From: Pseudomonadota bacterium
Lineage (GTDB): Bacteria > Pseudomonadota > Gammaproteobacteria > UBA9214
DNA length: 63,328 nucleotides
NCBI GenBank assembly: GCA_039714155.1
Contig: JBDLJX010000003.1
Coordinates: 1-63,328 of the forward strand
Direction: 5' to 3'
The notes under the pieces are model-generated. The model was not told where the DNA came from. It did not search any database and saw only the letters and a program-made list of their open reading frames with translations. Made by a program: the position numbers and the translations under genes. Within the stretch, counting starts at the first letter, position 1; every line of letters begins with the position of its first letter. Of the stretch, positions 6,760-58,452 are shown one piece after another.

Positions 6760-6762
6760 GCC

Positions 6763-7446
6763 ATGCATATCCTGGTTGTCGAAGACGAAACCCGCCTGCG
6801 CGAGCAACTGAGGGACCGCCTGCGTGACAGTGGCTACGTCGTCGAGGTGGCTGCCGACGGTGAGGAAGGCCTGTACTACGGCGAGGAATATCCGCTCGAC
6901 CTGGCGATTATCGATCTCGGGCTGCCGAAGTTGTCCGGTATCGAACTGATCCGCCGCCTGCGCTCCCGGGACCGGCATTTCCCGATCCTGATCCTGACGG
7001 CCAGGGGCAACTGGCAGGACAAGGTAGATGGCCTGGAAACCGGCGCCGATGATTACCTGGTCAAGCCGTTTCGCTTCGAGGAGCTCGAGGCGCGTTTGAA
7101 TGCCCTGTTGCGCCGCGCATCCGGCTGGTCGAAACCGGTGCTGGACTGCGGACCGATTTCGCTGGATACCGGCAAACAGTCCATCACGGTCTCGGGCAAT
7201 GCCGTGGAACTGACCGCCTTTGAGTACCGGGTGCTGGAATACCTGATGCTGCACGCCGGTGAAGTCATCTCCAAGACCGAACTGACGGACAACCTCTACG
7301 AGCAGGATTTCGACCGCGACAGTAATGTACTGGAAGTGTTCATCGGACGCCTGCGTCGCAAGCTGGACCCGGATAACACCATCAGCCCCATAGAAACACT
7401 GCGTGGCCGCGGCTATCGGTTCCGGCTGGAAGCCAACGCCGGCTGA
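6763..7446 (+). CDS. phoP: OmpR-family response regulator, PhoP-like
   Basis: ILVVEDE, DLAIIDLGLP, PILILTARGNWQDKVDGL..GADDYLVKPF.FEEL.ARLNALLRR, closely resembling Pseudomonas PhoP. Confidence 0.85.
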   Translation: MHILVVEDETRLREQLRDRLRDSGYVVEVAADGEEGLYYGEEYPLDLAIIDLGLPKLSGIELIRRLRSRDRHFPILILTARGNWQDKVDGLETGADDYLVKPFRFEELEARLNALLRRASGWSKPVLDCGPISLDTGKQSITVSGNAVELTAFEYRVLEYLMLHAGEVISKTELTDNLYEQDFDRDSNVLEVFIGRLRRKLDPDNTISPIETLRGRGYRFRLEANAG

Positions 7447-32046: not shown

Positions 32047-32937
32047 TCATGCCTCGAGTTGACGCAGCACATGTTCTGCATACAAACCGGCGGCATCGAT
32101 GCCAATCCCTTCGAGCGCACCACGGAAACCCCCGAATGCCGAGACTTCGAAAACAATCGGACCCTCATTTGTTTCGGCAACATCGACCGTGGTGAAGTCC
32201 ATATCAAACAGCGCCTGCGCCTGTTGTGCAAACTCTATCACCGCATCCGGCGGTGTATGCGCGGCATACCTGCCGCCACTGTGTATGGTCGTGTTCCAGG
32301 CATCGTCCCTCGACACCCTGGCATAGCTGCCGAGATATTCACCATCCAGGAACACCATCCCCAGGTCCCGGCCTGGCAGGTCGATTTTCTGCTGGATATA
32401 CATCATGGGATTGTCCACCTGAAAGGCGCGAATCTCACGCTCGATCTCGGCGTGGTCCCGGTGCGCGTCGATCACACACATGCCACGTGCCTTGGTGGAA
32501 TACAGGGGCTTGAAGACCGCACTGCCAAAATCCTGTACGGCCGTTAGCGCGGCCCCGACATCCTCGGTGACCCGGGTTGCCGGCATGGGAATGCCGGCGT
32601 TACGCAGGGTTACGGTACAGCTCAGGCGATCGATCAGACGCAGGATATGCTCCGCCCGGCTGAAGACCCGGACTCCGGCCTGCTCGGCCACGCGCAGCAG
32701 TTCCAGGCGATCCAGGGTATTGGGGTTGTAGCTGGCACTGATCTTTTTGACAATCAGGGCATCCAGCTGACACAAATCCTGATCCTGGAATAACAGGCGC
32801 TGCCGTTCCAGATCGAGGCTGACGCCAGCCATATCGATCACCAGCCGGTAGCCGGTCCTTGCCGCAACGGCATCGGCCAGGGTTTCCGTGGACCATTTCC
32901 CCGCTATGCCGATAACACCGATTTTGTATTCAGCCAA
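32047..32937 (-). CDS. GAK system ATP-grasp enzyme (RimK-like)
   Basis: IGVIG..GKWSTE.LADAV, DRLSCTVTL, KPLYSTKARGM, WNTTIHSGG, FEVSAFGGF; TTG start after AAGGAG. Confidence 0.9.
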   Translation of the reverse strand: MAEYKIGVIGIAGKWSTETLADAVAARTGYRLVIDMAGVSLDLERQRLLFQDQDLCQLDALIVKKISASYNPNTLDRLELLRVAEQAGVRVFSRAEHILRLIDRLSCTVTLRNAGIPMPATRVTEDVGAALTAVQDFGSAVFKPLYSTKARGMCVIDAHRDHAEIEREIRAFQVDNPMMYIQQKIDLPGRDLGMVFLDGEYLGSYARVSRDDAWNTTIHSGGRYAAHTPPDAVIEFAQQAQALFDMDFTTVDVAETNEGPIVFEVSAFGGFRGALEGIGIDAAGLYAEHVLRQLEA

Positions 32938-34570
32938 TGAAAATCTCCTTGACCGGAACACGAAACGATGCCGGATCCTTCAGGTCTGCAGCCAGCACCT
33001 GCTCGAGCAGGTAACGCGCACGCAGGAACATGGCGCGTGCCAGTGACTTGTCAAGGATAAACCGTGTCGATGTGGCAAACGAGCGCGCCAGCCCCAGGGC
33101 CAGGCGCAGCTCAAAGGTCCTGTCACCGGATTTCCCGGCATAGGCCGCTGCAAAACGGTAGAAATCCTGCGTCAGTATCAGGATACGTTTGCGTAGTGGT
33201 GCGTCGAAAATCTGCAGGCGGTAATTGGACACCATAAAAACCGATACATCCTGTACATAGTCCATGTAACGCGAACGATGCAGGTCAATGAAATTGATTT
33301 TCTTCTCCAGCGGGTCGTAGATGATGTTATCCACATTGAAATCGCCATGGATATAGACTGAAAATGGCGCCCTGATCCCGGCTTCGAGACGATGCGCCTG
33401 CTTCAGCAATGCGCCAAACGAAGCAACGGATTTGCCACAGATACAGCAGCCATCCTGCCGAAACTCCGGATGGATGGTATACACCTCCTCCAGGCGCCTT
33501 GAGAGTTGCCGCATGTAACCGGCGGCAACCGGTTTGCCGGTACGGGTCTCGCGCCATACCTTTCCCAGGGTACGGTTCAGCTGCTTCAGGGTCTGCCTGA
33601 GCAGACGGGTCGGCTCATGCAGTAATATCTGCTCGAATGTCTGTCCGGCCAGATGCTCAATCAATAACGAGGCAGACTGCCCGCGCTTGTGGTAGGAAAG
33701 AATCCTCGGCGCCAGACCCGGGTATATTTCCTGCCAGCTGTTCAGGCCCCTGCGCTCCTCCCGCAACTTGCGCTTCTTGCCGTCCTTGTAGATGGCTACA
33801 TAACCGGTATCTTCCTGGCCCGTTGCGCTGATACCGGAAATGCCGCTGCCTGAACGGGTTTCCGCAATCGGCTCGACCACCAGGTCTGCAGAGTTATTTG
33901 CCGTATCCAGCTGTTCCATTGAGGCACGCAGGGAATGGTAGCGATCAATGTTGATGGGCTGCCCCAGATTGGCGGATATAATGGCTTCGCTGATATTAAG
34001 CATGGCATCCCCCATCTGCTCAATGCCATGGACCAGGAACAGTCCCGCCACCAGGTCTTCCGTATGTTTCTTGCGCTTCAGTCCCGCGGTGTATTTTTTT
34101 ACCAGTTTTTGGCTGGCCTTGTCCAGGCTCGGCTTGATCCGGCCGATCTTGAGGGCCAGCCGGGTGTCATTTCGACGAATCGCAGGTTCAATCCGGTCAA
34201 GTCCCCTGCTGATTCCGCCCAGCATGGTTTTACAGGTGCCGGCGCCAGTGCAACGCCTGTTTTGCAGCTGATCCAGTTGCTGGATACATTCACGGCACAA
34301 GCCGGTGATACGTTCCAGGTCTGTCGCAATGGATTCAATGGCCCGCAGTGAAGCAATATCTGTACCTGATTCGCCGGCCTTGATGACCTGGTGGTGGCAG
34401 CTGTCGTGTATCCGCAGCATGAGATTATAGGCATAGCCGCTGCGGTCAAGAATACGCCGGGCAACGCTTGCCGAGGGGGTATCAAGATAGGCCTGTAGAT
34501 TGGAGACCTGGGACCCGACCTCGGCAATCAGGAAGCGGAGATTGTTGCGTATATTCTTCGAAATTCTCAT
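32930..34570 (-). CDS. PhoU-like domain fused to an APH/choline-kinase-like phosphotransferase
   Basis: N-terminal ATDLERI / IEQMGD PhoU-like repeats; HGDFNVDN and FIDL kinase motifs. Confidence 0.82.
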   Translation of the reverse strand: MRISKNIRNNLRFLIAEVGSQVSNLQAYLDTPSASVARRILDRSGYAYNLMLRIHDSCHHQVIKAGESGTDIASLRAIESIATDLERITGLCRECIQQLDQLQNRRCTGAGTCKTMLGGISRGLDRIEPAIRRNDTRLALKIGRIKPSLDKASQKLVKKYTAGLKRKKHTEDLVAGLFLVHGIEQMGDAMLNISEAIISANLGQPINIDRYHSLRASMEQLDTANNSADLVVEPIAETRSGSGISGISATGQEDTGYVAIYKDGKKRKLREERRGLNSWQEIYPGLAPRILSYHKRGQSASLLIEHLAGQTFEQILLHEPTRLLRQTLKQLNRTLGKVWRETRTGKPVAAGYMRQLSRRLEEVYTIHPEFRQDGCCICGKSVASFGALLKQAHRLEAGIRAPFSVYIHGDFNVDNIIYDPLEKKINFIDLHRSRYMDYVQDVSVFMVSNYRLQIFDAPLRKRILILTQDFYRFAAAYAGKSGDRTFELRLALGLARSFATSTRFILDKSLARAMFLRARYLLEQVLAADLKDPASFRVPVKEIFIG

Positions 34571-35043
34571 TACCAGTCGATGGTCCCCAGATAGACGGTG
34601 CCTGTGCCCTCGCTGGAATCCGCCAGGTACGGGGCCAGTGACCTCGGGTAAAGCGGCATGCCCGCAAGCTCGTCCAGCCTCGCCCAGACTACCTCTACCT
34701 GGTGCTTGTCCGGGTGGTGGCCGTTTATGGGCGCATAGTCATCAGGAACCGTGCACGCGAACAGAAACTCGACCAGGTGACGTGTGCCCCCGGGCGGTGT
34801 GTCCCGCGGCTTGAAACAGTCTGCCACGCAGACAAGTTCGCGGATTTCCACCCGGGTGCCGATTTCCTCCATGCATTCACGGTGCAGCGCCTGTTCCAGG
34901 GTCTCCCCGGGATCCTGGCCACCTCCCGGTAATGCAAACCGCTCACCCTCTTCATAGCCATCCTTGCGCAGCAGCAGGATGTGATTGTCCTGCAGAATCA
35001 GTGCGCGGGCAGCATTGCGTATCGGTGGGATAATCGATTCCAT
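34570..35043 (-). CDS. NUDIX hydrolase
   Basis: LPGGGQDPGETLEQALHRECMEEIG Nudix box. Confidence 0.9.
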   Translation of the reverse strand: MESIIPPIRNAARALILQDNHILLLRKDGYEEGERFALPGGGQDPGETLEQALHRECMEEIGTRVEIRELVCVADCFKPRDTPPGGTRHLVEFLFACTVPDDYAPINGHHPDKHQVEVVWARLDELAGMPLYPRSLAPYLADSSEGTGTVYLGTIDW

Positions 35044-35194
35044 TGGTCCACTGAAGTGGTTATTTTATTGCAATACCCAATCATACCAGTCAAATACCCG
35101 TATTATTGATAATAACCTGTGTAAACCAGCTTCACCCGGGAGCCTGTATCAAACAGGTCCACAAACGATCCTGAATGACTAAACGGACCTGACT

Positions 35195-36397
35195 GTGCCA
35201 GCACATAACCCCCTCAGAATCACCCGTACTGTACGAATACCTGACCGGGTGCGACTCAGTCGCTATCTGAAAACACCCGAACTGGGACCACGCATTTTGT
35301 TTTTCAGTGGCGGCACGGCCCTCACCGCTACGAGCCGTGTTTTAAAGCGCTACACGCACAACTCCATACACCTGGTCACCCCCTTTGATTCCGGTGGCAG
35401 CTCGGCAAAGCTGCGACAGGCCTTCTCCATGCCATCGATTGGCGACCTCCGCAGCCGGCTGGTAGCCCTCGCAGATGAAAACATTACCGGCCATCCGGAG
35501 GTTTACCAGTTATTCACCTATCGCTTTCCCGCCGATCAACCGGCCCGTGACCTGTTGGCCAGGCTCGACCTGATGAGCAGGGGCAAGGAACCGCTGGTGG
35601 CAGCCATCTCCAACCCCATGCGCCGTCTCATCCGCAACCAGCTGGGTTATTTCCGCAAGGCGATGCCGGATGATTTCGATCTGCGTGGCGCCAGCACCGG
35701 CAACCTGATTCTTGCCGGTGGCTACCTGAATAACCACAAGCATCTGGACCCGATCATTTTCCTGTTCTCGAAGCTGGTCAATGTACTGGGCACGGTACGC
35801 ACCGTGGTCAATGATAATCTGCACCTGGCGGCAGAGCTGGAGGATGGCAGTTACGTGACCGGCCAGCATCGGCTGACCGGCAAGGAAGTCGCACCATTGG
35901 GGTCCCCCGTCAGCCGGCTGTTCCTGTCCAGTCATCCCGACAAGCCCGTAGCCGCGAAAGCGGAAATGCGCAAAAAGAACCGCAGACTGATCCAGCAGGC
36001 AGAGCTCATCTGCTACCCTCCCGGCAGTTTCTATACGAGCCTGATAGCCAACCTGCTGCCGACAGGAGTTGGTTCAGCCATCGCCGGAACCGATTGCCCG
36101 AAAGTCTACATTCCCAACCTCGGGCAGGACCCGGAACAAATCGGTATGACCCTGGACAGTTCCGTACGGACCCTGCTCGATTACCTGCGTGCCGATAACA
36201 CGGACAAGTGTCCCAACGGGAAACTGCTGAATTTTGTGCTTATTGACAGCAAGCGGGGCAAATACCAATCATCACTGTCAACCCCGCTGATGCAGGAAGC
36301 GGCTATCCGGATCATCGATACCCGGCTGATCAGCAAACACAGTGCGCCTTATTATGATGCTGAACTGCTGGCTTCGGCCCTGCTGTCCCTGACATAG
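35195..36397 (+). CDS. GAK system CofD-like protein (CofD/UPF0052 family)
   Basis: FFSGGTAL, TPFDSGGSS..LR......GDLRSRL, GNLILAGGY, YPPGSFYTS, YIPN. Confidence 0.9.
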   Translation: MPAHNPLRITRTVRIPDRVRLSRYLKTPELGPRILFFSGGTALTATSRVLKRYTHNSIHLVTPFDSGGSSAKLRQAFSMPSIGDLRSRLVALADENITGHPEVYQLFTYRFPADQPARDLLARLDLMSRGKEPLVAAISNPMRRLIRNQLGYFRKAMPDDFDLRGASTGNLILAGGYLNNHKHLDPIIFLFSKLVNVLGTVRTVVNDNLHLAAELEDGSYVTGQHRLTGKEVAPLGSPVSRLFLSSHPDKPVAAKAEMRKKNRRLIQQAELICYPPGSFYTSLIANLLPTGVGSAIAGTDCPKVYIPNLGQDPEQIGMTLDSSVRTLLDYLRADNTDKCPNGKLLNFVLIDSKRGKYQSSLSTPLMQEAAIRIIDTRLISKHSAPYYDAELLASALLSLT

Positions 36398-39272: not shown

Positions 39273-40526
39273 TTACGTTTCCTCACTGGCCGGAACACCG
39301 GCAGGATGTCGTATATTGACCTGGTCAATACTGCGGTCTGATGCCCTGACAATCCTGACTTCCAGATTGTCGATTGTGAATATTTCATCCTCACACGGAA
39401 TATATTCCGTATGGTTCAGGATCCACAGGCTTACTGTATCGGTTGGTTTGCCGGGAAGATCCACATCAAAGAACTCTTCCACCACCCGTAGTTCAGCCGA
39501 GCCTTCCACAATAATCTCATTCCTGGAAACACTGTCGACATCGAGTGGTGCAACATCACTTTCATCATAGATTTCGCCGACCAGCTCCTCGAGCAGGTCT
39601 TCGAGTGTCGCGATTCCCCGCACATCACCGTATTCATCCACGACGATTGAGAAAAGGCGGTTACGCCGTCTTAACGTGGCAAACAGATCATCGATGGCCT
39701 GGTACTGCGACACAAACAGCGGCTCGTGGGCAATATTGCCCAGCCGTTCTTCCATCTGGCCGTTCGCGGAAGCCCTGAGCAGATCCCTCAGGTACAGCAC
39801 CTTCGTAAAGTTATCGTTTTGTCCTTCAAACAAAGGTATCCGCGAGTACCGCTCCTGTGAGACCACCGGCAGCGCCTCGGCAACCGTAAGGGTGGCATCC
39901 AGGGAAAATATCCGGCCCTTGGGCGTCATGACATCCCTGACTTTCAGGTCATTGAAGGCAAATACCCGCTCGATAATTTCCCTTTCATCATGTTCGATGG
40001 CGCCTTCCTCGACACCGTATCCCAGCATACCGATGAGTTCCAACTCGGTAACCGTTGGATCGCTCTTGCCACCCGTCAGGCGATGTACCCAGTTGGTAAA
40101 GTGGCCAAAGAACCAGACCAGCGGATAGATCAGGCGCATGAATAGCAGCAACGGGTAAGAGATGAACAGTGAAATGCGCTCGGAATAACGTGTTGCCAGA
40201 CTCTTGGGGGTAATTTCACCAAATACCAGAATAAACAGGGTAAGCACACCAACGGCAATACCGGGTCCGGCACTGCCAAATTCCCGTATTGCAACGACCG
40301 TCGCCAGTGCCGAAGCCGCAATATTGACCAGGTTGTTCCCTATCAGGATTGTCGTCAGCATTCGCGAAGGGTCTTTCTTGAGCTGGTACAGCGCCTTTGC
40401 GCCGGCACGGTCTTCCTTGACAAGGGCCTCCGCCCGCGCCATCGACAATGCTACCAGGGCCGTCTCCGAACCGGAAAAAATACCGGAGAAAACCAGCAAG
40501 ACCAGCAGAATACCAATCTCAATCAT
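39273..40526 (-). CDS. Hemolysin/CNNM family (DUF21-CBS-CBS-CorC_HlyC) membrane protein
   Basis: FSGSETAL, ILIGNNLVN, FGEITPK, YSRIP, VDEYG..G..TLEDLLEELVGEI.DE. Confidence 0.92.
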   Translation of the reverse strand: MIEIGILLVLLVFSGIFSGSETALVALSMARAEALVKEDRAGAKALYQLKKDPSRMLTTILIGNNLVNIAASALATVVAIREFGSAGPGIAVGVLTLFILVFGEITPKSLATRYSERISLFISYPLLLFMRLIYPLVWFFGHFTNWVHRLTGGKSDPTVTELELIGMLGYGVEEGAIEHDEREIIERVFAFNDLKVRDVMTPKGRIFSLDATLTVAEALPVVSQERYSRIPLFEGQNDNFTKVLYLRDLLRASANGQMEERLGNIAHEPLFVSQYQAIDDLFATLRRRNRLFSIVVDEYGDVRGIATLEDLLEELVGEIYDESDVAPLDVDSVSRNEIIVEGSAELRVVEEFFDVDLPGKPTDTVSLWILNHTEYIPCEDEIFTIDNLEVRIVRASDRSIDQVNIRHPAGVPASEET

Positions 40527-40736: not shown

Positions 40737-42284
40737 ATGCGTATCGAATTTATCATTCCCGAAGATCTGGACTACGAAGACCTGCAGTCAACGCTTCGGA
40801 AAAACACCCGGATGCTCCCGGAACCGGTACGGACAATCTACAGGACGTACTACGACAGTTTTGACTGGCGCCTGTATCAGAACGATTCCCTGCTTGAAGA
40901 CACCCGTGACGGCAATGAACACACACTGGTGTGGCAGACCCTGAAGGGCGAATACCGCTGCCCCCGGTTAAAGCTGCATGCAGCACCCCGGTTTGCCAGA
41001 GACCTGCCACATGGACCGTTTCGCAACAGCCTGGAACCGGTGCTTGAAATGCGCGAACTCATCCCGAAAGTCAGGATCCGTTCCCGGATCAATAGCCTGC
41101 GCATCCTGAACAGGGACGAAAAAACCGTGGCCTGGCTGACAGTCGAGGAAAACACCCTGCTGCGGCAGAAAGGGACACGCTCCGGAAAACTTGATAAGCG
41201 GGCTGTAGTGATTCCGGTCAGGGGCTACCCGAAACCCGGCAAGGCGCTGGCAAGACGCCTTCAGGAGCAGGGTCTGACCCCCGCGCAGGATGACCTCATG
41301 CTGGCGGCCCTGTCCACTACCGGTGCAATACCGGCCAGCTATTCTTCCAAGCTGGACCTGAAGCTGGATCCCGCCATGCGTGCAGACAGGACAACCAAGG
41401 TCATCCTGCACCGGCTCCTCGATATCATGTTACAAAACGAGGCTGGCACCCGCACGGGTACGGATACCGAATTCCTGCATGATTTCCGTGTCGCAATCCG
41501 CCGCACCCGTTCGGCCCTCACCCAGATCAAGGCGGTATTTCCGAAACGCATCGTTGACCGTTATAAAACCGAATTTGCCTGGCTCGGCGGGGTAACCAGC
41601 CCCAGCCGTGACCTGGATGTGTATTTACTGAATTTTGATGAATACCGTGACAGCCTGTCAGCCGCCATGCAGGCCGATATCGAACCACTGCGTGATTTTC
41701 TCATCAGGCACCAGAAGACTGAACACAGGACCCTGGTCAAGGCACTGGATTCGGCGCGCTACCGCCGGCTGATCAGGAACTGGCGTCTGTTTCTGGACCA
41801 GCCGGTCAACGAACGCTCGACACTGAAAAATGCAGGCCGGCCCGTCATTGAGGTTGCCTGCGAACGGATCTGGCGTGTCTACCGGTGCGCCATCCGGGAG
41901 GGTAATGCGATCAATGCAGAGTCGCCCGCGGATGCCCTGCATGAACTGCGCAAGACCTGCAAGAAACTGCGATATCTCATGGAGTTCTTCCAGAGCCTGT
42001 ATACGACCGGTAATATCAAGGAGTTAATCCGGGTACTCAAGACACTGCAGGACAACCTGGGTAATTTTCAGGATTACGAGGTACAGGTCACCACATTGAA
42101 AAAATTCAGCCACCAGATGGTTGCCGAAGGTACAGTCCCTCCTGATACGCTGCTCGCCATGGGTATGCTTATCGACGGCCTGGAACGGCGCCAGCATCAG
42201 GCGCGGGAAGAATTTGCCGGCCGGTTCGCGAATTTCTACCTGCAGGAAAATCAGGACCGGTTCCGGAAACTGTTCGCATATTAA
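40737..42284 (+). CDS. CYTH-like + CHAD domain protein (polyphosphate-binding family)
   Basis: YYDSFDWRL; E.LHDFRVA.RR.RS; LHELRK.CKKLRY..E, LQD.LG..QD. Confidence 0.9.
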   Translation: MRIEFIIPEDLDYEDLQSTLRKNTRMLPEPVRTIYRTYYDSFDWRLYQNDSLLEDTRDGNEHTLVWQTLKGEYRCPRLKLHAAPRFARDLPHGPFRNSLEPVLEMRELIPKVRIRSRINSLRILNRDEKTVAWLTVEENTLLRQKGTRSGKLDKRAVVIPVRGYPKPGKALARRLQEQGLTPAQDDLMLAALSTTGAIPASYSSKLDLKLDPAMRADRTTKVILHRLLDIMLQNEAGTRTGTDTEFLHDFRVAIRRTRSALTQIKAVFPKRIVDRYKTEFAWLGGVTSPSRDLDVYLLNFDEYRDSLSAAMQADIEPLRDFLIRHQKTEHRTLVKALDSARYRRLIRNWRLFLDQPVNERSTLKNAGRPVIEVACERIWRVYRCAIREGNAINAESPADALHELRKTCKKLRYLMEFFQSLYTTGNIKELIRVLKTLQDNLGNFQDYEVQVTTLKKFSHQMVAEGTVPPDTLLAMGMLIDGLERRQHQAREEFAGRFANFYLQENQDRFRKLFAY

Positions 42285-42300
42285 CCAGGGAACCCCCAGT

Positions 42301-43053
42301 TTGAAAGTAATCGCCACATACAACATCAAGGGCGGTGTCGGCAAGACGGCAACCGCGGTTAACCTCGCCTGGCTGGCGGCCCGCGAAGGTGCGCCAACAC
42401 TGGTCTGGGACCTCGATCCCCAGGGCGCCGCAAGCTACTACTTCCGTATCAAACCCAGTATCAAGGGAGGCGGCAAACGCCTGGTTCAGGGCAAGCGGGA
42501 CCTGGATGATTTTATCCGCGGTACCGATTATGAACTGCTCGATCTGCTGCCAGCGGATTTTTCCTACCGGAATATGGATCTTTACCTGGAACAGGCGAAA
42601 AACCCGATACGCCAGCTGCGCAAACTGCTCAAACCCTTCAAGAGTGAATATTACTATGTTTTTCTTGACTGCCCGCCGAGCATTTCCCTGGTATCGGAAA
42701 ACATCTTCGAGGCGACCGACACGGTGCTGGTACCAACCATACCAACCACCCTGTCGTTGCGCACCTACAAGCAGATCCGGAAATTTTTCCGGCAGCACGC
42801 ACTTGACACAGTCAAGATCCTGCCGTTCTTCTCTATGGTCGACCGCCGCAAGCAAATGCACCGCACTATCGTTGACAACCCGCCCGGGTACGTGGAGAAC
42901 CTCCTGCAGAACCATATTCCCTACAACAGTATCGTTGAGCGTATGGGAGACTATCGTGCCCCGCTGGGCGAATTTGCACCCAACAGCCATGCCAGCCGCT
43001 GCTATGAGGCCCTGTGGGAAGATGTCAGACAGCAGTTATCCGGCCAGGAATAA
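42301..43053 (+). CDS. ParA/Soj family ATPase
   Basis: YNIKGGVGKT deviant Walker A, WDLDPQG, DCPPS; TTG start 42301. Confidence 0.9.
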   Translation: MKVIATYNIKGGVGKTATAVNLAWLAAREGAPTLVWDLDPQGAASYYFRIKPSIKGGGKRLVQGKRDLDDFIRGTDYELLDLLPADFSYRNMDLYLEQAKNPIRQLRKLLKPFKSEYYYVFLDCPPSISLVSENIFEATDTVLVPTIPTTLSLRTYKQIRKFFRQHALDTVKILPFFSMVDRRKQMHRTIVDNPPGYVENLLQNHIPYNSIVERMGDYRAPLGEFAPNSHASRCYEALWEDVRQQLSGQE

Positions 43054-43128
43054 GCCGCTTATTTCCAGGGAGTATCCCGGCAACAGCACACCCGCATCCT
43101 GCGGGTCTGAATCCTCACACCGTAATAA

Positions 43129-43142
43129 TTGATCCAGATCAA
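43129..43142. promoter_or_regulatory. FNR/Anr-type box
   Basis: TTGAT-ccag-ATCAA, perfect consensus; AATACT ~20 nt downstream. Confidence 0.7.
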
Positions 43143-43250
43143 AAAAACGCCATATATCAGGCAATACTGATTGCTCCTGACTCAGCCTGATGCCAGCATG
43201 TTTAGTTCACTAATCATGTCACCTTGAAAAAATTGAGGGGGTTAAGGAAC

Positions 43251-43601
43251 ATGAAACCAGCCATTATCGATATTCCCGGCATCGGGCCGGCAGCAGCAGA
43301 AACACTGGCCGAACATCGCATCAGGAGTCTTGCCGGCCTTGCCAGGGCATCTGTCGAGAAAATCACCGCCATTCCCGGTTTCAGTGAAGCACGCGCCACC
43401 CAGGTCATCGCAGCCGCCGCCGAGCTGCTTGCCGCATCAGGAACAACCCCGGCAGCCAAAGACGCAGGTGAGGAATCCGGGAAAAAGACCAAGTCTGGCG
43501 GCAAAGGCAAAAAAGACAAGAAGAAAAAAGACAAGGGAAAAGGCAAGAATAAGGGTAAAGGTAAGGGCAAGAACAAGGGAAAGAAGAAAGGCAAGAAATA
43601 G
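43251..43601 (+). CDS. Helix-hairpin-helix protein with Lys/Gly-rich tail
   Basis: IPGIGPAAA..L and IPGFSEARA HhH pair; tail KGKKDKKKKDKGKGKNKGKGKGKNKGKKKGKK. Confidence 0.85.
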   Translation: MKPAIIDIPGIGPAAAETLAEHRIRSLAGLARASVEKITAIPGFSEARATQVIAAAAELLAASGTTPAAKDAGEESGKKTKSGGKGKKDKKKKDKGKGKNKGKGKGKNKGKKKGKK

Positions 43602-43667
43602 TACTGACGCCACTAACCGGCATCGTCGACTCCTGAAAACCATTTCGGATCAGCCGGCAGTTGCTGT

Positions 43668-43691
43668 GCAGGAGCGGGCTCTAGCCCGCGA
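43668..43691 (+). repeat. Family A REP
   Basis: gcaggagcgggctctagcccgcga. Confidence 0.7.
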
Positions 43692-43809
43692 ACCCTGTCT
43701 CCCCCGGCCACCACTTTCGCCAGTAAGCTGGCTCCTGCAACCAACTGCCCGGGCATGCGACCATTGTGTGCCCATCATATGCACCAGTCATTCCGGCCAC
43801 TCTCGAAAT

Positions 43810-43854
43810 TTATCATCACATGGTAATAAAACGGTAACATTCCGCTGTTATTGT
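43810..43854 (+). promoter_or_regulatory. Tandem Pho box upstream of pstS
   Basis: TTATCAT-caca-TGGTAAT-aaaa-CGGTAAC (11 bp period), 10 nt, TATTGT. Confidence 0.65.
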
Positions 43855-44021
43855 TAGCTAACCTTAAGCTAACGCAAATTTAATATCTCTCTAATACTGA
43901 CCTGACAACACGTCTCTTCAGCGACTGGAATAACCGTCTCCACAAGCTGGAAAGACTGTAAACGCCGGGAGAAAACCGGTGTTTATGTGTAATGCATACA
44001 TATTCAACTGGAGCTGAAATC

Positions 44022-44894
44022 ATGAAACTGAAACTCATTCTTTCCACAACGCTGCTGGTGTCCGCCCTGCTAACCACAATGGCCCCGCAGGCACGCACCC
44101 TGATCCAGAACAAGGGCTCGGATACACTGGTCAATGTCGCCCAGGCCTGGGCAGAAGCCTACCCGAAGGTTAACCCCGATGTCGCTGTTGCTGTCTCCGG
44201 CGGCGGCTCCGGCACGGGCATTGCGGCCATGATCAACGGCACGGTGGATATTGCCAACGCCAGCCGCAAGATGAAGGCCAAGGAGATGAAGCTGGCCAAG
44301 GAAAACGGCCAGTCACCGGTCGAGCATGTCGTCGGCTACGATGCGCTGGCGGTATTCATTCACAGGGACAACCCGGTCAAGTCCATGTCGCTGGCACAAT
44401 TAAAGGACATCTACGGCCGTGACCCCAAGGTCAAAAAGTGGTCGGACATGGGCATCACCGTTCCCGGCTGCAAGGACAAGATTGTGGTGGTGAGCCGGCA
44501 GAACAATTCCGGCACCTACGTCTATTTCAAGGAGACCGTGCTGGGCAAGAAAGGCAAGTATCGCCAGGGAACACTGGATATGCACGGCTCCAAGGATGTT
44601 GTTGACCTGGTCGAGAAGACACCCTGCGCCATCGGCTACAGTGGTCTGGCCTATGCCACGGACCACCTCAAGATGGTCTGCATAGCAAAAGACGGCGCGG
44701 ATGCCTGTGTAAACCCGAGTGTTGGAACAGCCAGCGACCGCAGTTATCCCATTGCCCGTCCGCTGTTCATGTACACCGACGGTGAGCCCAAGGGCGCGAT
44801 CAAGGCCTACATGGACTGGATTCAGAGCGATGCCGGTCAATGTATATTGAAGAAAAAAGGCTACGCCCCAATACGCGCCGTCAAGTGCGACTGA
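44022..44894 (+). CDS. pstS: Phosphate ABC transporter substrate-binding protein
   Basis: KGSDT, GGGSGTGI, DIANASR, SRQNNSGTY..F, YPIARPLFMY; ATG 44022 after GGAG. Confidence 0.93.
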   Translation: MKLKLILSTTLLVSALLTTMAPQARTLIQNKGSDTLVNVAQAWAEAYPKVNPDVAVAVSGGGSGTGIAAMINGTVDIANASRKMKAKEMKLAKENGQSPVEHVVGYDALAVFIHRDNPVKSMSLAQLKDIYGRDPKVKKWSDMGITVPGCKDKIVVVSRQNNSGTYVYFKETVLGKKGKYRQGTLDMHGSKDVVDLVEKTPCAIGYSGLAYATDHLKMVCIAKDGADACVNPSVGTASDRSYPIARPLFMYTDGEPKGAIKAYMDWIQSDAGQCILKKKGYAPIRAVKCD

Positions 44895-44935
44895 GCTTCA
44901 ATTCTTTACACTGGGTCAGGTTCTTGACCGGTCCT

Positions 44936-44983
44936 GTGGGAGCGCCGTCCCCGGCGCGATTCGCGGCTGGAAGCCGCTCCTGC
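44936..44983. repeat. Head-to-head family A REP pair
   Basis: gtgggagcgccgtccccggcgcga-t-tcgcggctggaagccgctcctgc. Confidence 0.8.
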
Positions 44984-45052
44984 AGTAAGAGATTTTGCAA
45001 TGACCGGCATAACTACAAATTTTTTCAAGCTGCAACCACGGGATGCTAGACA

Positions 45053-46138
45053 ATGAGTCACTACGAAGAACGTCTGGAAAGAGACCTGGCCGCCATCCGC
45101 GTACAGGTGGCAGACATGGCCGCCCTGGTGGAAACAGGGGTCAAGAATGCCATGCACGCACTGCAAACCGGCAATAGCAAGCTCGCATCCGCCACCGTAC
45201 TTGCAGACCACCCGATCAACCGCTCCATGCGGTGGATCGACCAGTTATGTCATAAATTCATTGCCCTGCACCTGCCGAGCGCGGGTCATCTGCGGTTGCT
45301 GTCCTCCGTGATCCGGGCAAACATCGAACTGGAACGGATCGGAGATTACGCCGTCACCATCGCCCGCGAGGCATTACAACTGTCGGCACCTCCGTCAGGA
45401 CCAATGTCCCGTGAACTGGAACGTGTCGGCAGCGAGACGCAACTCATGCTGGGCCAGTCCATCAAGGCCTTTAACGAGCTCAATCCTGAAATGGCAAAAG
45501 GCACCATGATCATGGAAGAGCAGATGGAGAATGACCTGGACATCATCTATTCCGAGTTGATGGCCAATGACGACCGGGATGCGGTCAAGAACCTGCTGGC
45601 GATGTTCGCCGTTTTCACCCAGCTGAAACGGATCGCAGACCAGGCCAAGAACCTCTGCGAGGAAACGGTTTTCGCCGCTACCGGTGACACCAAGGCACCC
45701 AAGGTCTACAACATCCTGTTCATTGACGAGGACAACAGTTGTCAAAGCCAGATCGCCGAGGCCATTGCCCGCAAGAACTTTCCCGAAAGCGGCAACTACA
45801 CCAGCGCCGGGCGGCAACCTGCCGCCGGGCTGAATCCTGCCATGGTGGAATTTCTTGACAGCCATGGCGTAAGCCTTGCTGACACCGCCAAACCCAGACC
45901 CCTTGACATGACCCCGCTGGAACTGACCACACAGCATTTCATCGTCAGCCTGCAGGGCACGGTCAACTCCTACTTCGACCTGATCCCCTTCCACACCACC
46001 CCTCTGGAGTGGGACGTCGGTCCCGCCCCGGAGAGTAGTGATGAAGCCGGCATCAAGCGAATGGAAGAACTCTACCGTGACACGGCCGTCCAGGTTCGTG
46101 ACCTGATGGAAGCCCTGCGCGGTAAGGAAGCGCCTTGA
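45053..46138 (+). CDS. phoU: PhoU fused to a degenerate LMW-PTP/ArsC-like domain
   Basis: ELERIGDYA and LKRIADQAKNLCE PhoU repeats; ILFIDEDNSCQSQIAEA...SAG in place of C(X)5R. Confidence 0.85.
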   Translation: MSHYEERLERDLAAIRVQVADMAALVETGVKNAMHALQTGNSKLASATVLADHPINRSMRWIDQLCHKFIALHLPSAGHLRLLSSVIRANIELERIGDYAVTIAREALQLSAPPSGPMSRELERVGSETQLMLGQSIKAFNELNPEMAKGTMIMEEQMENDLDIIYSELMANDDRDAVKNLLAMFAVFTQLKRIADQAKNLCEETVFAATGDTKAPKVYNILFIDEDNSCQSQIAEAIARKNFPESGNYTSAGRQPAAGLNPAMVEFLDSHGVSLADTAKPRPLDMTPLELTTQHFIVSLQGTVNSYFDLIPFHTTPLEWDVGPAPESSDEAGIKRMEELYRDTAVQVRDLMEALRGKEAP

Positions 46139-46139
46139 T

Positions 46140-47072
46140 ATGCCCGACCAGCAGCTGACAGAGAGAGCCAGCATGACGGCATTCGATCGTCGCAACGCCG
46201 ACTGGTATATCGACAAGCTGGTCCAGGTGCTGGTCTTCATCGGCGGCATCTCGGCCATCATCTTTGTCGTCGGTATCTTTGCCTTCGTCACCAAGGAAGG
46301 CTTCGGTTTCATTCTCGACCGCTTCGATTTCCAGGAATTCTTCACCTCCCCCTACTGGTACCCCGCCGAAGAGGAGGATCCTGAATATGGTATCCTGGCG
46401 CTGATCGCGGGCACGGCCAGTGTCACCGGACTGGCCATGCTGGTGGCCATCCCGTTTTCACTGGGCGCGGCGATCTATGTCGCCGAATTTGCCAGCGGCA
46501 AGACCCGGGAGACCCTCAAGGTACTGGTGGAACTGCTGGCCGCCATCCCCTCGGTGGTATGGGGCTTCATCGGTCTCAGCATCATGAACCCGCTGATCAT
46601 ACAAGTCTTTGACGTCCCGGTGGGACTGAATGTACTGAACGCCGGCATTATCCTCGGACTGATGGCCGCACCCATCATGACATCCATCGCCGAGGATGCT
46701 CTCAAGGCGGTGCCCGACCGTTACCGGGAAGCCGCTGAAGCCATGGGCGCCACCCGCTGGCAGGTCATCTACAAGACTGTGTTACCGGCCGCCAAGAATG
46801 GCCTGCTGGGTGCTGTCCTGCTGGGTGTCGGCCGGGGTTTCGGCGAAACCATGGCCGTGCTGATGGCCACCGGTCACTCGATCAACATCCCGCACAGCAT
46901 CTTCGACTCGGTGCGCGCCCTGACGGCCACCATTGCCGCGGAACTGGGTGAAACCGCCGTCGGTTCCGATCACTACCAGGTACTGTTCACCATCGGCATC
47001 TTCCTGTTCCTGATCACTTTCGTTATTAACCTCACCGCCGATCTGATCGTGCGTGGCGTACGCAAGGGGTAG
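46140..47072 (+). CDS. pstC: Phosphate ABC permease PstC
   Basis: ELLAAIPSVVWG, P.RYREAA.AMGATRW, GRGFGETMAV.M. Confidence 0.93.
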   Translation: MPDQQLTERASMTAFDRRNADWYIDKLVQVLVFIGGISAIIFVVGIFAFVTKEGFGFILDRFDFQEFFTSPYWYPAEEEDPEYGILALIAGTASVTGLAMLVAIPFSLGAAIYVAEFASGKTRETLKVLVELLAAIPSVVWGFIGLSIMNPLIIQVFDVPVGLNVLNAGIILGLMAAPIMTSIAEDALKAVPDRYREAAEAMGATRWQVIYKTVLPAAKNGLLGAVLLGVGRGFGETMAVLMATGHSINIPHSIFDSVRALTATIAAELGETAVGSDHYQVLFTIGIFLFLITFVINLTADLIVRGVRKG

Positions 47073-47081
47073 GTACTAATC

Positions 47082-47951
47082 ATGTTCGAGACATCCGCAC
47101 TCAATATCAAAAACCAGCGGGTCCAGCGACTGTTTAATATCCTGTTCCTGCTGATGACCATGTTGCTGATTTTGCCGGTGCTGCTGATACTCGGGACCCT
47201 GGTTGCAAAAGGCGGCTCGGTCATCTCGATCGATTTCCTGTTCACCGCCCCGACCGACGGCATGACCGCAGGCGGCCTGTTCCCTGCCCTGCTGGGCACC
47301 GTCTGGCTGGTGGCGGTGGCGCTGCTGATCTCCGTGCCGCTGGGAATCGCAGCCGCCATCTATCTCAGCGAGTACGCAGGCAACAACTGGTTCACCCGCA
47401 TCATCAACCTGGCCATTATCAACCTGGCCGGCGTACCGTCGATCGTGCACGCCCTGTTCGGTGTCGGCGCCTTCGTGCTATTTTTCGGCTTTGGCACCAG
47501 CATCCTCGCGGCCAGCCTGACGCTGGCCATCATGACCCTGCCGGTGGTGATTGTGGCGACCCGCGAATCCCTGCAGGCGGTCCCGCATGCGTTTCGCGAG
47601 GCCTGCTGGAACATGGGCGCCACCCGCTGGCAGACCATTCGCCGCGTGGTGCTGCCCAATGCCGTCTCCGGCATCCTGACCGGTGTCATTCTCGAGGTAT
47701 CGCGCACCTCCGGTGAGACCGCGCCCATCATGTTCACCGGCGCCGTATTCTTCACGCCGTTCCTGCCACAGGGGATCTTTGACCAGACCATGGCCATGTC
47801 CCTGCACCTGTTCGTGGTATCGACGCAGGTCCCCGGCGTCCCCGAAGACCTGCCTTACGGTGTGGCCCTGGTGCTCATCGCCATGGTACTGCTGATGAAC
47901 AGCATCTCCATCGCCTTCCGTACCTGGTTGCGGGGTAAAAAGAAATGGTAG
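47082..47951 (+). CDS. pstA: Phosphate ABC permease PstA
   Basis: NLAGVPSIV..LFG, REA....GATRWQTI, R..GETAPI. Confidence 0.93.
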   Translation: MFETSALNIKNQRVQRLFNILFLLMTMLLILPVLLILGTLVAKGGSVISIDFLFTAPTDGMTAGGLFPALLGTVWLVAVALLISVPLGIAAAIYLSEYAGNNWFTRIINLAIINLAGVPSIVHALFGVGAFVLFFGFGTSILAASLTLAIMTLPVVIVATRESLQAVPHAFREACWNMGATRWQTIRRVVLPNAVSGILTGVILEVSRTSGETAPIMFTGAVFFTPFLPQGIFDQTMAMSLHLFVVSTQVPGVPEDLPYGVALVLIAMVLLMNSISIAFRTWLRGKKKW

Positions 47952-48748
47952 CCGGTATGCAGACAGCCGCACCTGCACCGGTAGCGGAACAAGTACCCAT
48001 CAAACTGGAAGTGCGCAACCTGTCCATTCGCTATGGCGATACAGCCGCACTCAGTGACGTCAGCCTGGACATCCGTGAACACGAAATCTTCGGCATCATC
48101 GGTCCGGCCAATGCCGGCAAGACCTCGTTCCTGAAAACGCTGAACCGCATGGACACGTTCAACTCCAGTATGCATGTCGGCGGTGAAATCCTGTTCAACG
48201 GTCTTGATATCCACCGCCTGAAAAATGTCTATGCATTGCGTTCCCGTATCGGTGTGGTATTCCCCCTGCCGGTCGGTCTGCCAATGACGATTTATGACAA
48301 CGTGGCCCTCGCCCCGCGCCTGTCAGGTATGAAAAAAAAGACCGACCTCGACATCATCGTCGAGCGCTGCCTGACCCGCGCCGCACTCTGGGATGAGGTC
48401 AAGGACCGGCTGACTTCCCTCGGCAGTCTGCTCTCCGGTGGCCAGCAGCAGCGCCTGACGATCGCCCGCGCGCTGTCCCAGGAACCGGAAGTGCTGATGC
48501 TCGACGAGTTCTCCATCGCCGTCGACCCGGTGACGACCATGCGCATCGAGGATGTCCTCAAGGAACTGAAACAGGAAATGACCATCATCCTGGTCACCAA
48601 CCTGGTACAGCAGGCGCGGCGTCTTGCCAGCCGAACCGCATTTTTCCTCAATGGCGAGTGCGTGGAAATCGGCGCGACCGAGGACCTGTTTACCGGCGAG
48701 GTCAAGGACCAGCGCACCCGGGATTACGTCGAGGGACGGTTTGGATAA
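47945..48748 (+). CDS. pstB: PstB-like ATPase 1 (intact signature, H-loop His replaced by Asn)
   Basis: GPANAGKT, LSGGQQQR, LDEF, LVTN, T..YVEGRFG. Confidence 0.88.
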   Translation: MVAGMQTAAPAPVAEQVPIKLEVRNLSIRYGDTAALSDVSLDIREHEIFGIIGPANAGKTSFLKTLNRMDTFNSSMHVGGEILFNGLDIHRLKNVYALRSRIGVVFPLPVGLPMTIYDNVALAPRLSGMKKKTDLDIIVERCLTRAALWDEVKDRLTSLGSLLSGGQQQRLTIARALSQEPEVLMLDEFSIAVDPVTTMRIEDVLKELKQEMTIILVTNLVQQARRLASRTAFFLNGECVEIGATEDLFTGEVKDQRTRDYVEGRFG

Positions 48749-49552
48749 ATGATGAATACAAGCAGCCAGGCAGTCATTGATAATCCGGTGGAATATGCCA
48801 TCCAGACAGAGCGATTGAATCTCTGGTATGGCACGTTTCAGGCGCTGTTCGATATCGATCTCGACATCAAGCAAGGCATCATCACTTCCCTCATCGGACC
48901 TTCCGGGTGCGGCAAATCAACCTTCCTGCGCAGTGTCAACCGCATTAATGAACGGCTCGGTTATGTGCGCATCGAGGGTTCGATCAATGTCTTCGACCAC
49001 AACATCTATGACCCGGCTGTCGAACTTGTACAGGTGCGCAAACAGATCGGCATGGTCTTCCAGCGACCAAACCCGCTACCGATTTCCATCCGCGACAACG
49101 TGCTGTTCGGCTACAACCTGCATTCGGAAGGCAAACGTGCCTCGCGCAGTGAACAGGATGATATCGCCGAGGACGCCCTTCGCCAGGTACTGTTATGGGA
49201 CAAGGTCAAGGACCGGCTGGACAGCAAGGGCACCGAACTCTCGCTGGAGGAACAGCAGAAACTCTGTATCGCCCGCCTGCTGCCCGTCAAGCCCGGCTTG
49301 CTGCTGATGGATGAACCCTGCTCCGCGCTCGACCCCAAGGGCACCGAGGCCGTGGAAGAGCTGATATGGGAACTGCGCGGCAAGTACACCATCCTCATCG
49401 TGACCCACAACATGGCCCAGGCGCGTCGCGCCAGCGAAGAATGCATCTTTATGCTGATGGGCAAGGTGGTGGAACACACGGCCACCGAAGACATGTTTGT
49501 CACACCCCGGAAACAGGAAACGGCGGACTACATCGAAGGCCGTTACGGCTAG
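48749..49552 (+). CDS. pstB: PstB-like ATPase 2 (degenerate signature, intact Walker A/B and H-loop)
   Basis: GPSGCGKS, MVFQRPNP, LSLEEQQKL, MDEPCSALDP, IVTHN, YIEGRYG. Confidence 0.9.
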   Translation: MMNTSSQAVIDNPVEYAIQTERLNLWYGTFQALFDIDLDIKQGIITSLIGPSGCGKSTFLRSVNRINERLGYVRIEGSINVFDHNIYDPAVELVQVRKQIGMVFQRPNPLPISIRDNVLFGYNLHSEGKRASRSEQDDIAEDALRQVLLWDKVKDRLDSKGTELSLEEQQKLCIARLLPVKPGLLLMDEPCSALDPKGTEAVEELIWELRGKYTILIVTHNMAQARRASEECIFMLMGKVVEHTATEDMFVTPRKQETADYIEGRYG

Positions 49553-56880: not shown

Positions 56881-58452
56881 CTATTTTTTACCATCAAGTA
56901 TCGCTTCCAGCCGGTCACAGAACGTACTGATCACCTTGATGCGCGCGAAACGCTTGTCGTTGCCCTCAACCAGCACCCAGGGAGCAGAATAGGTACTGGT
57001 GTGCTCGACGATATCGTTGACCGCCCATTCGTAATCATCCCATTTCTCGCGGTTGCGCCAGTCTTCCTCGGTCAGTTTCCAGCGTTTGTGGGGCGTCTGC
57101 TCACGGGCCTTGAAGCGTTCCAGTTGTTCATCCTTGGTTATGTGGACCCAGTATTTCAGCAGCAGGATCCCGTGGTCCGTCAGCTGTTCCTCGAATTCAT
57201 TGATCTCGGCAAAAGCCCGCTTCCATTCATCCTCGGAGGCAAACCCCTCAACCCGCTCCACCAGGACGCGTCCGTACCAGCTGCGGTCAAAAATGTTAAC
57301 ACGGCCGGCGCGGGACAGGTGTCGCCAGAAACGCCACAGGTAGTGGTGGGCCCGTTCTTCATCCGTTGGCGCGGCAATCGGCAGGACCTGGTAGTGGCGG
57401 GCATCCAGTGCTGCGGTTACCCGGCGGATTGCACCGCCCTTACCGGCGGCATCGGCCCCCTCGAACATCAGGATGGTCGATATCTTCTTCTTCAGTGCAT
57501 TGCGATGCAGCTTGTTCAGCCGCGCCTGGCATTTCTTCAGCTGCTTCTTGTAGTCGGATTTCTTCAGCTGCAGCGACATGTCCAGGCTGGACAGTACCGT
57601 GACCCTCTGCAGCGGGCGGATTACAGTAGCCGGTTCATCCGCCTCCCCTTTCGGGGCCTCCACAACTGATTGCCGATCCTCCGCCAGGTGCGACTCACGC
57701 TCAGCTGCCAGCTGCTCCAGCAATAATGCCTTGTTGCGGGCTTCGTCAAGATGTGTGGCGATCTCGTTGCGTACAATTTCCCCGATAGTCAGGCTGCGGA
57801 AACACGGGTCCACGCCCTCGACGATCGTCCAGGGTGCCGTACCGGTACTGGTGCGCATGATGGTACGCTCCGCCGCTGCCTCGAAGCGGTCATAAATGTG
57901 CCAGTGATCCCAGTCCTGCTGGGTGACCCGCCAGCTCGTCAGGGGATCCTTCTCCAGCTTCTTCAGGCGTCGATTCTGGGCATCATGACTCAGGTGCATC
58001 CAGAACTTGAGGATCAGCGCACCGTCATCGGCAAGGGCCTTCTCGAATGCCAGGATCCGGTCCAGACGGTCATCAAAGGTTGCCTCGTCATCCTTCTCAT
58101 ATACCCGGCGCAGTATCGGCTGCGAATACCAGGAACTCAGGAACAGGCCGATGTGACCATTTGGCGGTAAATCGCGCCAGAAGCGCCAGTATTCCGGCCG
58201 GTCACGTTCTTCATCGGACGGCTCGTCATAGGCCCTGGTGATCAGCCAGCGCGGATCCATCCACTCATTGAGAAGGTTAACGGTATCCCCCTTGCCGCCA
58301 CCATCCACGCCGGCAAACAGGATGATTACCGGAAATTCGCTGCTTACTCTGAGATTTGCCTGCACCTCGAGCAATGCCTGCCGCAGTACCGGTTCCCGCT
58401 GATTAAATTCACTTTTCGGAACTTTCTGCCCAAGCTCGGCTGTTCTGAACAT
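56881..58452 (-). CDS. pap: Polyphosphate:AMP phosphotransferase (two-domain class II PPK2)
   Basis: GVDGGGKG and EGADAAGKGG P-loops, FDRSWYGRVLVERVEG, WKLT.EDW. Confidence 0.93.
   Translation of the reverse strand: MFRTAELGQKVPKSEFNQREPVLRQALLEVQANLRVSSEFPVIILFAGVDGGGKGDTVNLLNEWMDPRWLITRAYDEPSDEERDRPEYWRFWRDLPPNGHIGLFLSSWYSQPILRRVYEKDDEATFDDRLDRILAFEKALADDGALILKFWMHLSHDAQNRRLKKLEKDPLTSWRVTQQDWDHWHIYDRFEAAAERTIMRTSTGTAPWTIVEGVDPCFRSLTIGEIVRNEIATHLDEARNKALLLEQLAAERESHLAEDRQSVVEAPKGEADEPATVIRPLQRVTVLSSLDMSLQLKKSDYKKQLKKCQARLNKLHRNALKKKISTILMFEGADAAGKGGAIRRVTAALDARHYQVLPIAAPTDEERAHHYLWRFWRHLSRAGRVNIFDRSWYGRVLVERVEGFASEDEWKRAFAEINEFEEQLTDHGILLLKYWVHITKDEQLERFKAREQTPHKRWKLTEEDWRNREKWDDYEWAVNDIVEHTSTYSAPWVLVEGNDKRFARIKVISTFCDRLEAILDGKK

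Follow-up and report, generated by a model that had tools for sequence, protein, structure and literature searches.

A conserved CHAD–ParA gene pair in a gammaproteobacterial phosphate island as a candidate positioning system for polyphosphate granules

The CHAD–ParA gene pair and its conservation

The group of three genes considered here is located at positions 40737–43601 of a 63,328-nt stretch of contig JBDLJX010000003.1 (assembly GCA_039714155.1, Pseudomonadota bacterium, gammaproteobacterial lineage UBA9214); this whole stretch is referred to below as the window. A first-pass annotation had described here a gene encoding a CYTH-CHAD protein, a parA gene downstream of it and a gene encoding a helix-hairpin-helix (HhH) protein with a Lys/Gly tail, and had proposed that their products space polyphosphate (polyP) granules on the nucleoid. 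All three genes were confirmed; the TTG start codon of parA is located exactly 16 nt past the CHAD stop codon, behind an AGGGAA box.

Loci for the comparative analysis were gathered by ParA similarity, with the window ParA as the query in the first round (orthologues of 88–58% identity) and a ParA of 51% identity, encoded on a distant contig, in the second, and a further set was obtained with a methanotroph CHAD protein. Of the 80 first-round loci, 79 had a CHAD gene immediately 5' of parA, and the other was truncated by a contig end. After pooling and deduplication, 144 unique ParAs were retained, 129 of which were preceded by 1.7 kb or more of sequence; CHAD was directly upstream in 111 of these 129 orthologues (109 identified by script and two by inspection, namely, L133, where the gap is 412 nt, and L087, where both genes were called as a single open reading frame (ORF)). 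The stop and start codons of 115 unique CHAD–ParA pairs overlapped by 4 nt in 60 cases and by 1 nt in 14, and nearly all of the others were no more than 20 nt apart. Overlaps in 74 of the 115 pairs and mostly short gaps in the others mark CHAD–ParA as a translationally coupled operon. With CHAD upstream in 111 of 129 orthologues, the arrangement is far beyond chance, and the pair represents the conserved unit of the locus. The synteny of the three genes, a check suggested in the first-pass annotation, was borne out for the pair, whereas the HhH gene was found directly 3' of parA in 19 of the 134 unique loci with enough downstream sequence (~14%). In agreement with the earlier remark that the window lacks parB, no ParB-family Pfam match was obtained among the ~47 larger window ORFs scanned, and no ParB gene adjoined any of the ParA orthologues inspected.

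An apparent natural fusion of CHAD and ParA in L087, a long ENA contig (776-aa ORF, 3491–5821), differed by four single-base indels from the near-identical locus L088 and was most likely an assembly artefact.

The pair was found in Gamma-, Beta- and Alphaproteobacteria, Desulfobacterota, Calditrichia, KSB1, Chlorobi and metagenome-assembled genomes (MAGs) of Actinobacteria (Microthrixaceae). Its carriers included uncultured marine Gammaproteobacteria, Sedimenticola, Thiodiazotropha, Chromatiaceae and Methylophaga, as well as Methylotuvimicrobium buryatense 5G, Methylomonas lenta and Methyloglobulus morosus of the Methylococcaceae; other carriers were Nitrosomonas marina, Aestuariispira insulae, Desulfuromonadales, Desulfobacterales, Calditrichia, KSB1, Pelodictyon luteolum and Microthrixaceae MAGs. 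The 18 unlinked ParAs belonged mostly to one Methylobacter/Methylococcaceae clade, which in the neighbour-joining tree was nested among linked Methylococcaceae. In Methylobacter, parA had been relocated between a response regulator/GGDEF gene and a glycogen phosphorylase gene (L099 5500–9400 and related loci), and in at least five unlinked cases the CHAD orthologue was kept beside pstS elsewhere in the MAG, on a different contig. Because the unlinked clade is nested in linked ones and CHAD persists in the same MAGs, the linkage was lost secondarily in this clade, with co-occurrence kept.

Domain architecture of the encoded proteins

The CHAD domain (Pfam PF05235) of the first protein was detected with E = 1.4e-60 (205.6 bits, cut-off 25.6), and this half of the protein was aligned to the crystal structures 3e0s and 6qv7 of CtCHAD from Chlorobaculum tepidum with E ~1e-43. 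The domain family binds polyP at nanomolar affinity, with polyP binding and granule localisation demonstrated for CtCHAD, and the polyP-contact residues of the window protein were mapped by reading the CtCHAD alignment against the published mutational analysis (PMC6537752). The central-cavity ligands H253, R256, R260, R296 and R418/Y419 of CtCHAD correspond to H248, R251, R255, R291 and R412/Y413, all of which were identical; R432/K435 correspond to the "front" patch residues R438/K441, and two of the four "back" patch residues were basic. The conservation of these contact residues suggests that the window CHAD protein binds polyP.

For the N-terminal part of the protein (residues 1–215), Pfam gave no match in any of 30 members at E up to 10, and even a 30-sequence profile found nothing in the PDB. 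Its AlphaFold2 (AF2) model (predicted local distance difference test (pLDDT) 83), built on the alignment from a homologue search giving 20 proteins, mostly fragmentary, resembled triphosphate-tunnel/CYTH structures in Foldseek, namely, SaTTM 7ns8 (E = 2e-6) and E. coli YgiF 5a60 (template modelling (TM) score 0.61). The Foldseek probability was 1.0 for 7ns8, 5a60, 2een, 3sy3 and 5a65 (TM 0.5–0.66), and the structural matches included thiamine triphosphatase and CyaB-type/class IV cyclases. Judging by the model, this domain has the eight-stranded tunnel of a CYTH fold; thus, the "CYTH" label given to the gene earlier was borne out at the level of the fold, whereas CYTH was not detected by sequence and the ExExK catalytic motif was absent. 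Strand 1 reads IEFII in place of this motif, which was missing in 112 of 113 unique homologues. Because ExExK is absent and the Pfam CYTH model does not see the domain, the N-domain is probably non-catalytic, neither a triphosphatase nor a cyclase. The conserved charged residues of this dead-CYTH (dCYTH) domain were D40, D43, R45, R106, K129, E137, R162 and K205, and the family signature was YYDSFDWRLY.

All ParA-linked CHAD proteins found carried the same degenerate N-domain. A profile of the N-domain and the first ~80 CHAD residues yielded a dCYTH-CHAD family of 1,551 clusters at 50% identity (E up to 1e-30). It should be noted that the crystallised CtCHAD comprises residues 208–522 of a 522-aa protein that is a member of this family; therefore, the N-domain of the full-length protein is predicted to be the same dead-CYTH module. 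The CtCHAD orthologue of Pelodictyon luteolum (E = 1e-74) had parA directly downstream (L197 3551–6196). The window protein resembles the CHAD "phosins" (PptA/PptB of R. eutropha; CtCHAD, SsCHAD) in its CHAD domain with conserved polyP-contact residues and the E. coli TTM-CHAD protein YgiF in its domain order, CYTH fold and then CHAD. It differs from both in an N-domain devoid of ExExK and invisible to the Pfam CYTH model and in its pairing with ParA.

The ParA protein matched the Pfam families AAA_31 (E = 2e-32), CbiA and ParA. Its deviant Walker A motif KGGVGKT occupies residues 10–16, and K10, K15, D37, D39, D123, R183 and K184 were invariant across 145 ParA sequences, as were the motifs WDLDPQG (D37, D39) and FLDCPP (D123); R183/K184 align with the "DxR" region of Soj. 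The closest solved relatives were the ParA family protein 8ray (E = 3e-22, residues 3–239), T. thermophilus Soj (TtSoj 1wcv, residues 4–245) and H. pylori Soj (HpSoj 6iub), and the McdA structures 6noo/6non were matched more distantly (6noo, E = 3e-8). No NCBIfam model reached its cut-off, with weak BcsQ, MinD and tyrosine-kinase matches only, and the subfamily is therefore uncurated. No obvious MinD-like C-terminal amphipathic helix was seen when the ParA sequence was inspected by eye.

The best start of the third gene was ATG at 43251, the ORF list giving TTG at 43224; a gap of 197 nt separates this gene from parA. The HhH domain matched Pfam HHH_5 (PF14520; E = 2e-14, 54.1 bits, cut-off 27). 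In the AF2 model, residues 1–62 were folded (pLDDT 83–89 for residues 1–60) and residues 63–116 were disordered (below 50), and the folds nearest to the (HhH)2 model were the RadA/Rad51 N-terminal domain (root-mean-square deviation 0.9–2 Å over ~56 residues) and NusA AR. The 52-aa tail contained 24 Lys and 12 Gly and had a net charge of +19. The HhH family was small, with 158 clusters, all of 85–112 aa, and a median tail charge of +17; a search with the single HhH domain of the window protein gave close relatives only. Long Arg-rich ORFs on both strands at 43214–43857 were alternative-frame artefacts of the AAG/GGC-rich repeat encoding the Lys tail.

HhH followed parA directly in 22 gammaproteobacterial loci (the 19 unique loci and the looked-up loci L160–L162), including three loci without pst (L029, L067 and L075), and was missing from the close relatives L007, L010, L016 and L018–L021. 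The four HhH homologues looked up independently all showed the order CNNM (divergent), CHAD, ParA, HhH, pstS, and every family member with a known context was located in a CHAD–ParA locus. In the Desulfuromonadales locus L190, an HhH homologue with a (KKDV)n tail was found ~1.1 kb downstream of parA, after two genes. Thus, the HhH gene is not a random neighbour of CHAD–ParA; however, because only about one locus in seven has it, it is a lineage-limited accessory outside the conserved core, and its product is not a core McdB-like partner. AlgP of P. aeruginosa and PhaF/PhaM are histone H1-like, Lys-rich proteins by which polyP or PHB granules are spaced. By composition and description, the HhH protein resembles them in its small size and in the long, Lys-rich and disordered tail at its C-terminus, and it is probably an AlgP-like bridge binding DNA and/or polyP. 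It differs from AlgP and PhaF in its (HhH)2 N-domain, which is neither a coiled coil nor a phasin, in the KG/KD/KK repeats of its tail, unlike the repeat types described for either protein, and in its genetic linkage to ParA.

Phosphate and polyphosphate genes around the pair

The gene content of the window (Table 1) identifies it as a Pho/polyP island. From its start, it carries phoH, two histidine phosphatase genes, the "GAK system" set, apaH and the divergent CNNM/CorC gene, which are followed by the trio; then come pstS, a phoU-LMWPc fusion, pstC, pstA, two pstB genes, phoB and phoR; and the end of the window contains genes for a metallophosphoesterase, PHO4 together with a PhoU_div protein, a two-domain PPK2 and a 2-phosphoglycerate-kinase-like protein. 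No carboxysome genes were found among the window ORFs scanned, and a promoter and terminator scan of the + strand gave nothing informative. Relatives of the window DNA occur in marine sediment metagenomes.

Table 1. Coordinates of the trio and of selected phosphate-related and transport genes in the window
Feature	Positions	Strand	Evidence
dCYTH-CHAD gene, 515 aa; N-domain aa 1–~200 = nt 40737–41336; CHAD aa 223–454 = nt 41403–42098	40737..42284	+	Pfam, AF2 + Foldseek
Deviant Walker A ATPase of the ParA/Soj type, 250 aa, start codon TTG	42301..43053	+	Pfam, PDB profile
Small (HhH)2 protein, 116 aa, disordered Lys/Gly/Asp tail	43251..43601	+	Pfam HHH_5, AF2
pstS, phoU-LMWPc fusion, pstC, pstA, two pstB-like genes, directly 3' of the trio	43992..49552	+	Pfam
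CNNM/CorC-type divalent-cation transporter, divergent from the CHAD gene	39273..40526	-	Pfam CNNM E 5e-58, CBS, CorC_HlyC
Two-domain polyphosphate kinase 2 (PPK2)	56881..58452	-	Pfam PPK2 E 1e-137, two stretches

Outside the window, genes of polyP metabolism repeatedly accompanied the pair. The ppk1 gene was located directly upstream of CHAD–ParA in L106, L113, L138, L142, L190 and L192, the order ppk1-CHAD-parA occurring in loci of Deltaproteobacteria; a Calditrichia locus (L124) had the order ppk2-CHAD-parA-ppk1; and in L019, L025, L028 and L031 the pair was flanked by ppk1 upstream and ppk2 downstream. The ppx gene was present in L016, L106 and L190. The last of these loci (1–7862), from a Desulfuromonadales MAG, contained ppx on the opposite strand, ppk1, dCYTH-CHAD and parA, followed by genes for a canonical CYTH protein (EIERK), a SixA-like histidine phosphatase and the HhH protein with the (KKDV)n tail. 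The pstSCAB-phoU genes downstream of the trio were conserved only in the closer (window) clade; a divergent pstS adjoined the CHAD gene in Methylococcaceae, and pepN was found upstream of the pair in Sedimenticolaceae, as drawn for Acidithiobacillus. Taken together, this gene neighbourhood points to a strong link of the ParA subfamily to polyphosphate.

Several further features of the island were recorded. Across the window clade, the CNNM/CorC gene and the CHAD gene are divergently oriented, and L087/L088 (1–3288) carry three tandem copies of the former; this neighbour may be linked to the Mg-rich nature of polyP granules. In the fused gene at 45053–46138, PhoU is joined to a low-molecular-weight phosphatase/ArsC-like domain, and the fusion was present in every pst-linked relative seen. 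Two tandem pstB-like ABC ATPase genes follow pstA at 47945–49552, a layout shared with L087/L088. The "GAK system" set adjoining the phosphate island (32047–36397) encodes an ATP-grasp protein of the RimK type, a fusion of a PhoU domain with an APH kinase, a NUDIX protein and a CofD-like protein that matched NCBIfam TIGR04357 with E = 2e-165 and whose gene was also kept upstream in related loci. A gene for a HicB-like antitoxin with an RHH domain was located near the window start (647–1108).

A putative positioning system and its alternatives

The best reading of the comparative genomics is that ParA drives the positioning of polyP granules: the combination of a polyP-binding domain family, an intact ParA, operonic coupling and a repeated polyP-gene context suggests that CHAD–ParA is a ParA-type positioning system with the polyP granule as its cargo, to which we assign a probability of about 0.5. 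The earlier proposal of a polyP-granule ParA module thus finds support in comparative genomics for the coupled pair, conserved in the context of ppk1, ppk2, ppx and pst, but not for the trio, which is not a conserved unit.

Starting from the genes, folds, motifs and synteny described above, the contacts between the proteins, the nucleoid matrix and the positioning outcome are proposed by analogy with ParABS and McdAB. On this model, polyP granules would carry a coat of CHAD domains, and ATP-bound ParA dimers would bind the nucleoid non-specifically, with the nucleoid acting as the matrix. The granule-bound CHAD protein would engage ParA and stimulate ATP hydrolysis, most likely through the dead-CYTH N-domain, since this is the sole feature that always accompanies ParA. 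Granules would then follow ParA gradients upward and would be kept apart, spaced along the nucleoid and divided between the daughter cells. The HhH/Lys-tail protein, added in the window lineage and independently in Desulfuromonadales, would tether the granules to the nucleoid or modulate their fusion. The wider proposition, that ATP-driven partition of polyP granules is widespread, with CHAD serving as the counterpart of ParB or McdB through its dead CYTH domain and a polylysine-tailed (HhH)2 protein coupling granule and nucleoid in some lineages, is offered tentatively, at somewhat less than an even chance.

The resemblance to McdA/McdB consists in an orphan ParA-type ATPase encoded in the gene cluster of the cargo together with a cargo-binding protein, in the match of the window ParA to 6noo/6non and in the expected logic of a nucleoid matrix with a cargo-stimulated ATPase. 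However, the window ParA, which keeps the signature lysine, matches Soj/ParA (E = 3e-22 to 3e-14) better than McdA; beside it, and upstream, is the gene for a 515-aa CHAD protein instead of a downstream one for a small McdB; its candidate partners are without a McdB-like N-terminal disordered region; and the cargo would be a condensate of an inorganic polymer rather than the protein shell of a carboxysome. From ParABS the system differs in that no ParB was found among the scanned ORFs of the window or next to the inspected orthologues.

CHAD proteins localise to polyP granules, and their over-expression shifts the granules (PMC6537752). The Lys-rich protein AlgP spaces polyP granules, and its loss results in fewer, larger granules (PMC9239181, PMC13052382). 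A 2025 review of organelle positioning names only AlgP for polyP, gives the ATP dependence as unknown and raises the question of whether energy is used (PMC13052382). The same review does not bear out the earlier statement that ParA/MinD ATPases position polyhydroxyalkanoate (PHA) granules; it lists PhaM, PhaF and PhaH, for which ATP dependence is likewise unknown. Among reviews of 2023–2025, neither this one nor those of ParA/MinD cargoes (PMC10241942, PMC11407121) and of polyP and chromatin (PMC11894788) name a ParA for polyP granules, and none was found in the open-access literature searched. The same gene association, folD-ppk-parA-CHAD, with pepN close by as it is at the loci of Sedimenticola, has been reported for Acidithiobacillus, where ParA was called a plasmid or chromosome partition protein and CYTH-CHAD an adenylate cyclase, with neither a granule-positioning role nor a survey of distribution (PMC10892726, PMC6416229). 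A granule-positioning ParA with a CHAD-type partner would therefore plausibly represent both a new cargo and a new partner type for ParA/MinD systems.

Several observations weigh against the positioning of granules by CHAD–ParA. Partners of ParA typically stimulate its ATPase through an N-terminal peptide that is disordered and carries positive charge (PMC10241942), and no such peptide was found in the CHAD or HhH protein: the N-terminus of the CHAD protein forms a beta strand and a helix and is acidic, and the N-terminus of the HhH protein is folded in the AF2 model. The sole basic disordered segment is the C-terminal tail of the HhH protein, which most genomes are without and which, at its observed frequency, cannot be essential to the module. 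Non-specific DNA binding by ParA is predicted from its conserved basic residues. One clade has separated the CHAD and parA genes. A scan with the E. coli Pho-box consensus gave 8 matches against 5.4 expected, nothing above chance and hence no sign of Pho regulation. Deletions of the Ralstonia CHAD genes and of E. coli ygiF gave no phenotype (cited in PMC6537752); these proteins may lie outside the ParA-linked family.

The main rival explanation, judged unlikely, is that CHAD–ParA acts on polyP but that ParA is an assembly or regulatory NTPase of the BcsQ, FlhG or SIMIBI type and not a motor, controlling granule nucleation, the recruitment of PPK/PPX, or the activity or oligomeric state of CHAD. 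The polyP gene context fits such a role equally, the tight translational coupling is as for a stoichiometric complex, and no partner with the canonical N-terminal peptide was found; moreover, many orthologues are annotated as BcsQ by JGI, and the weak NCBIfam matches are of the BcsQ/MinD/tyrosine-kinase kind. Against this stand the ParA/Soj partition ATPases as the nearest solved relatives, the invariance of the signature lysine and of the Soj-type basic residues, and the fact that the characterised nucleoid-binding members of the ParA family are all positioning systems (PMC11407121). Automatic annotation as a chromosome partitioning protein (PMC10892726, PMC6416229) would agree with an ordinary chromosome or plasmid partition ParA located here by accident; however, the gene is part of a phosphate island on the chromosome, the neighbour it keeps is CHAD, ParB is lacking among the scanned ORFs of the window and beside the inspected orthologues, and the NCBIfam partition models fell far below their cut-offs, so this explanation is very improbable.

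The remaining alternatives concern the genes downstream. A ParA serving phosphate uptake or signalling, for example by positioning Pst/PhoU/PhoR complexes, would explain the pstS-phoU-pstCAB genes directly downstream in the window clade and the divergent pstS beside CHAD in Methylococcaceae, but the linkage to pst is clade-limited whereas that to CHAD is nearly universal, ppk1, ppk2, ppx or pepN takes the place of pst at many loci, and pstS remained with CHAD after ParA had moved in Methylobacter; such a role is considered highly doubtful. It is also possible, although rather unlikely, that CHAD–ParA is a functional unit and the HhH/Lys-tail protein an unrelated nucleoid-associated or Pho-regulated protein encoded between the pair and pstS. 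The absence of the gene from ~86% of the orthologous loci, close relatives included, would be consistent with this, as would the gap after parA, in which the gene may have its own promoter, and the nature of (HhH)2 domains and Lys tails as generic DNA binders. Nevertheless, the members with a known context are all in CHAD–ParA loci, three of them without pst; the Desulfuromonadales polyP cluster holds an HhH gene beyond parA; and the family is small and was found nowhere else in the searches made.

The spacing and inheritance of polyP granules in bacteria is an open question, for which CHAD–ParA supplies a concrete gene pair. The pair is present in tractable or cultured organisms, namely, M. 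buryatense 5G, Methylomonas lenta, Sedimenticola, Nitrosomonas marina, Chlorobi and Acidithiobacillus, as well as in phosphorus-accumulating lineages such as Microthrixaceae. If CHAD–ParA does position polyP granules, genes that at present carry the annotations "chromosome partitioning protein", "BcsQ" and "adenylate cyclase" would be reassigned, and the N-domain of the well-studied CtCHAD protein would acquire a function. The CYTH fold would then have been reused as a non-catalytic module, and the ParA/MinD family would have in polyP granules its first cargo made of an inorganic polymer.

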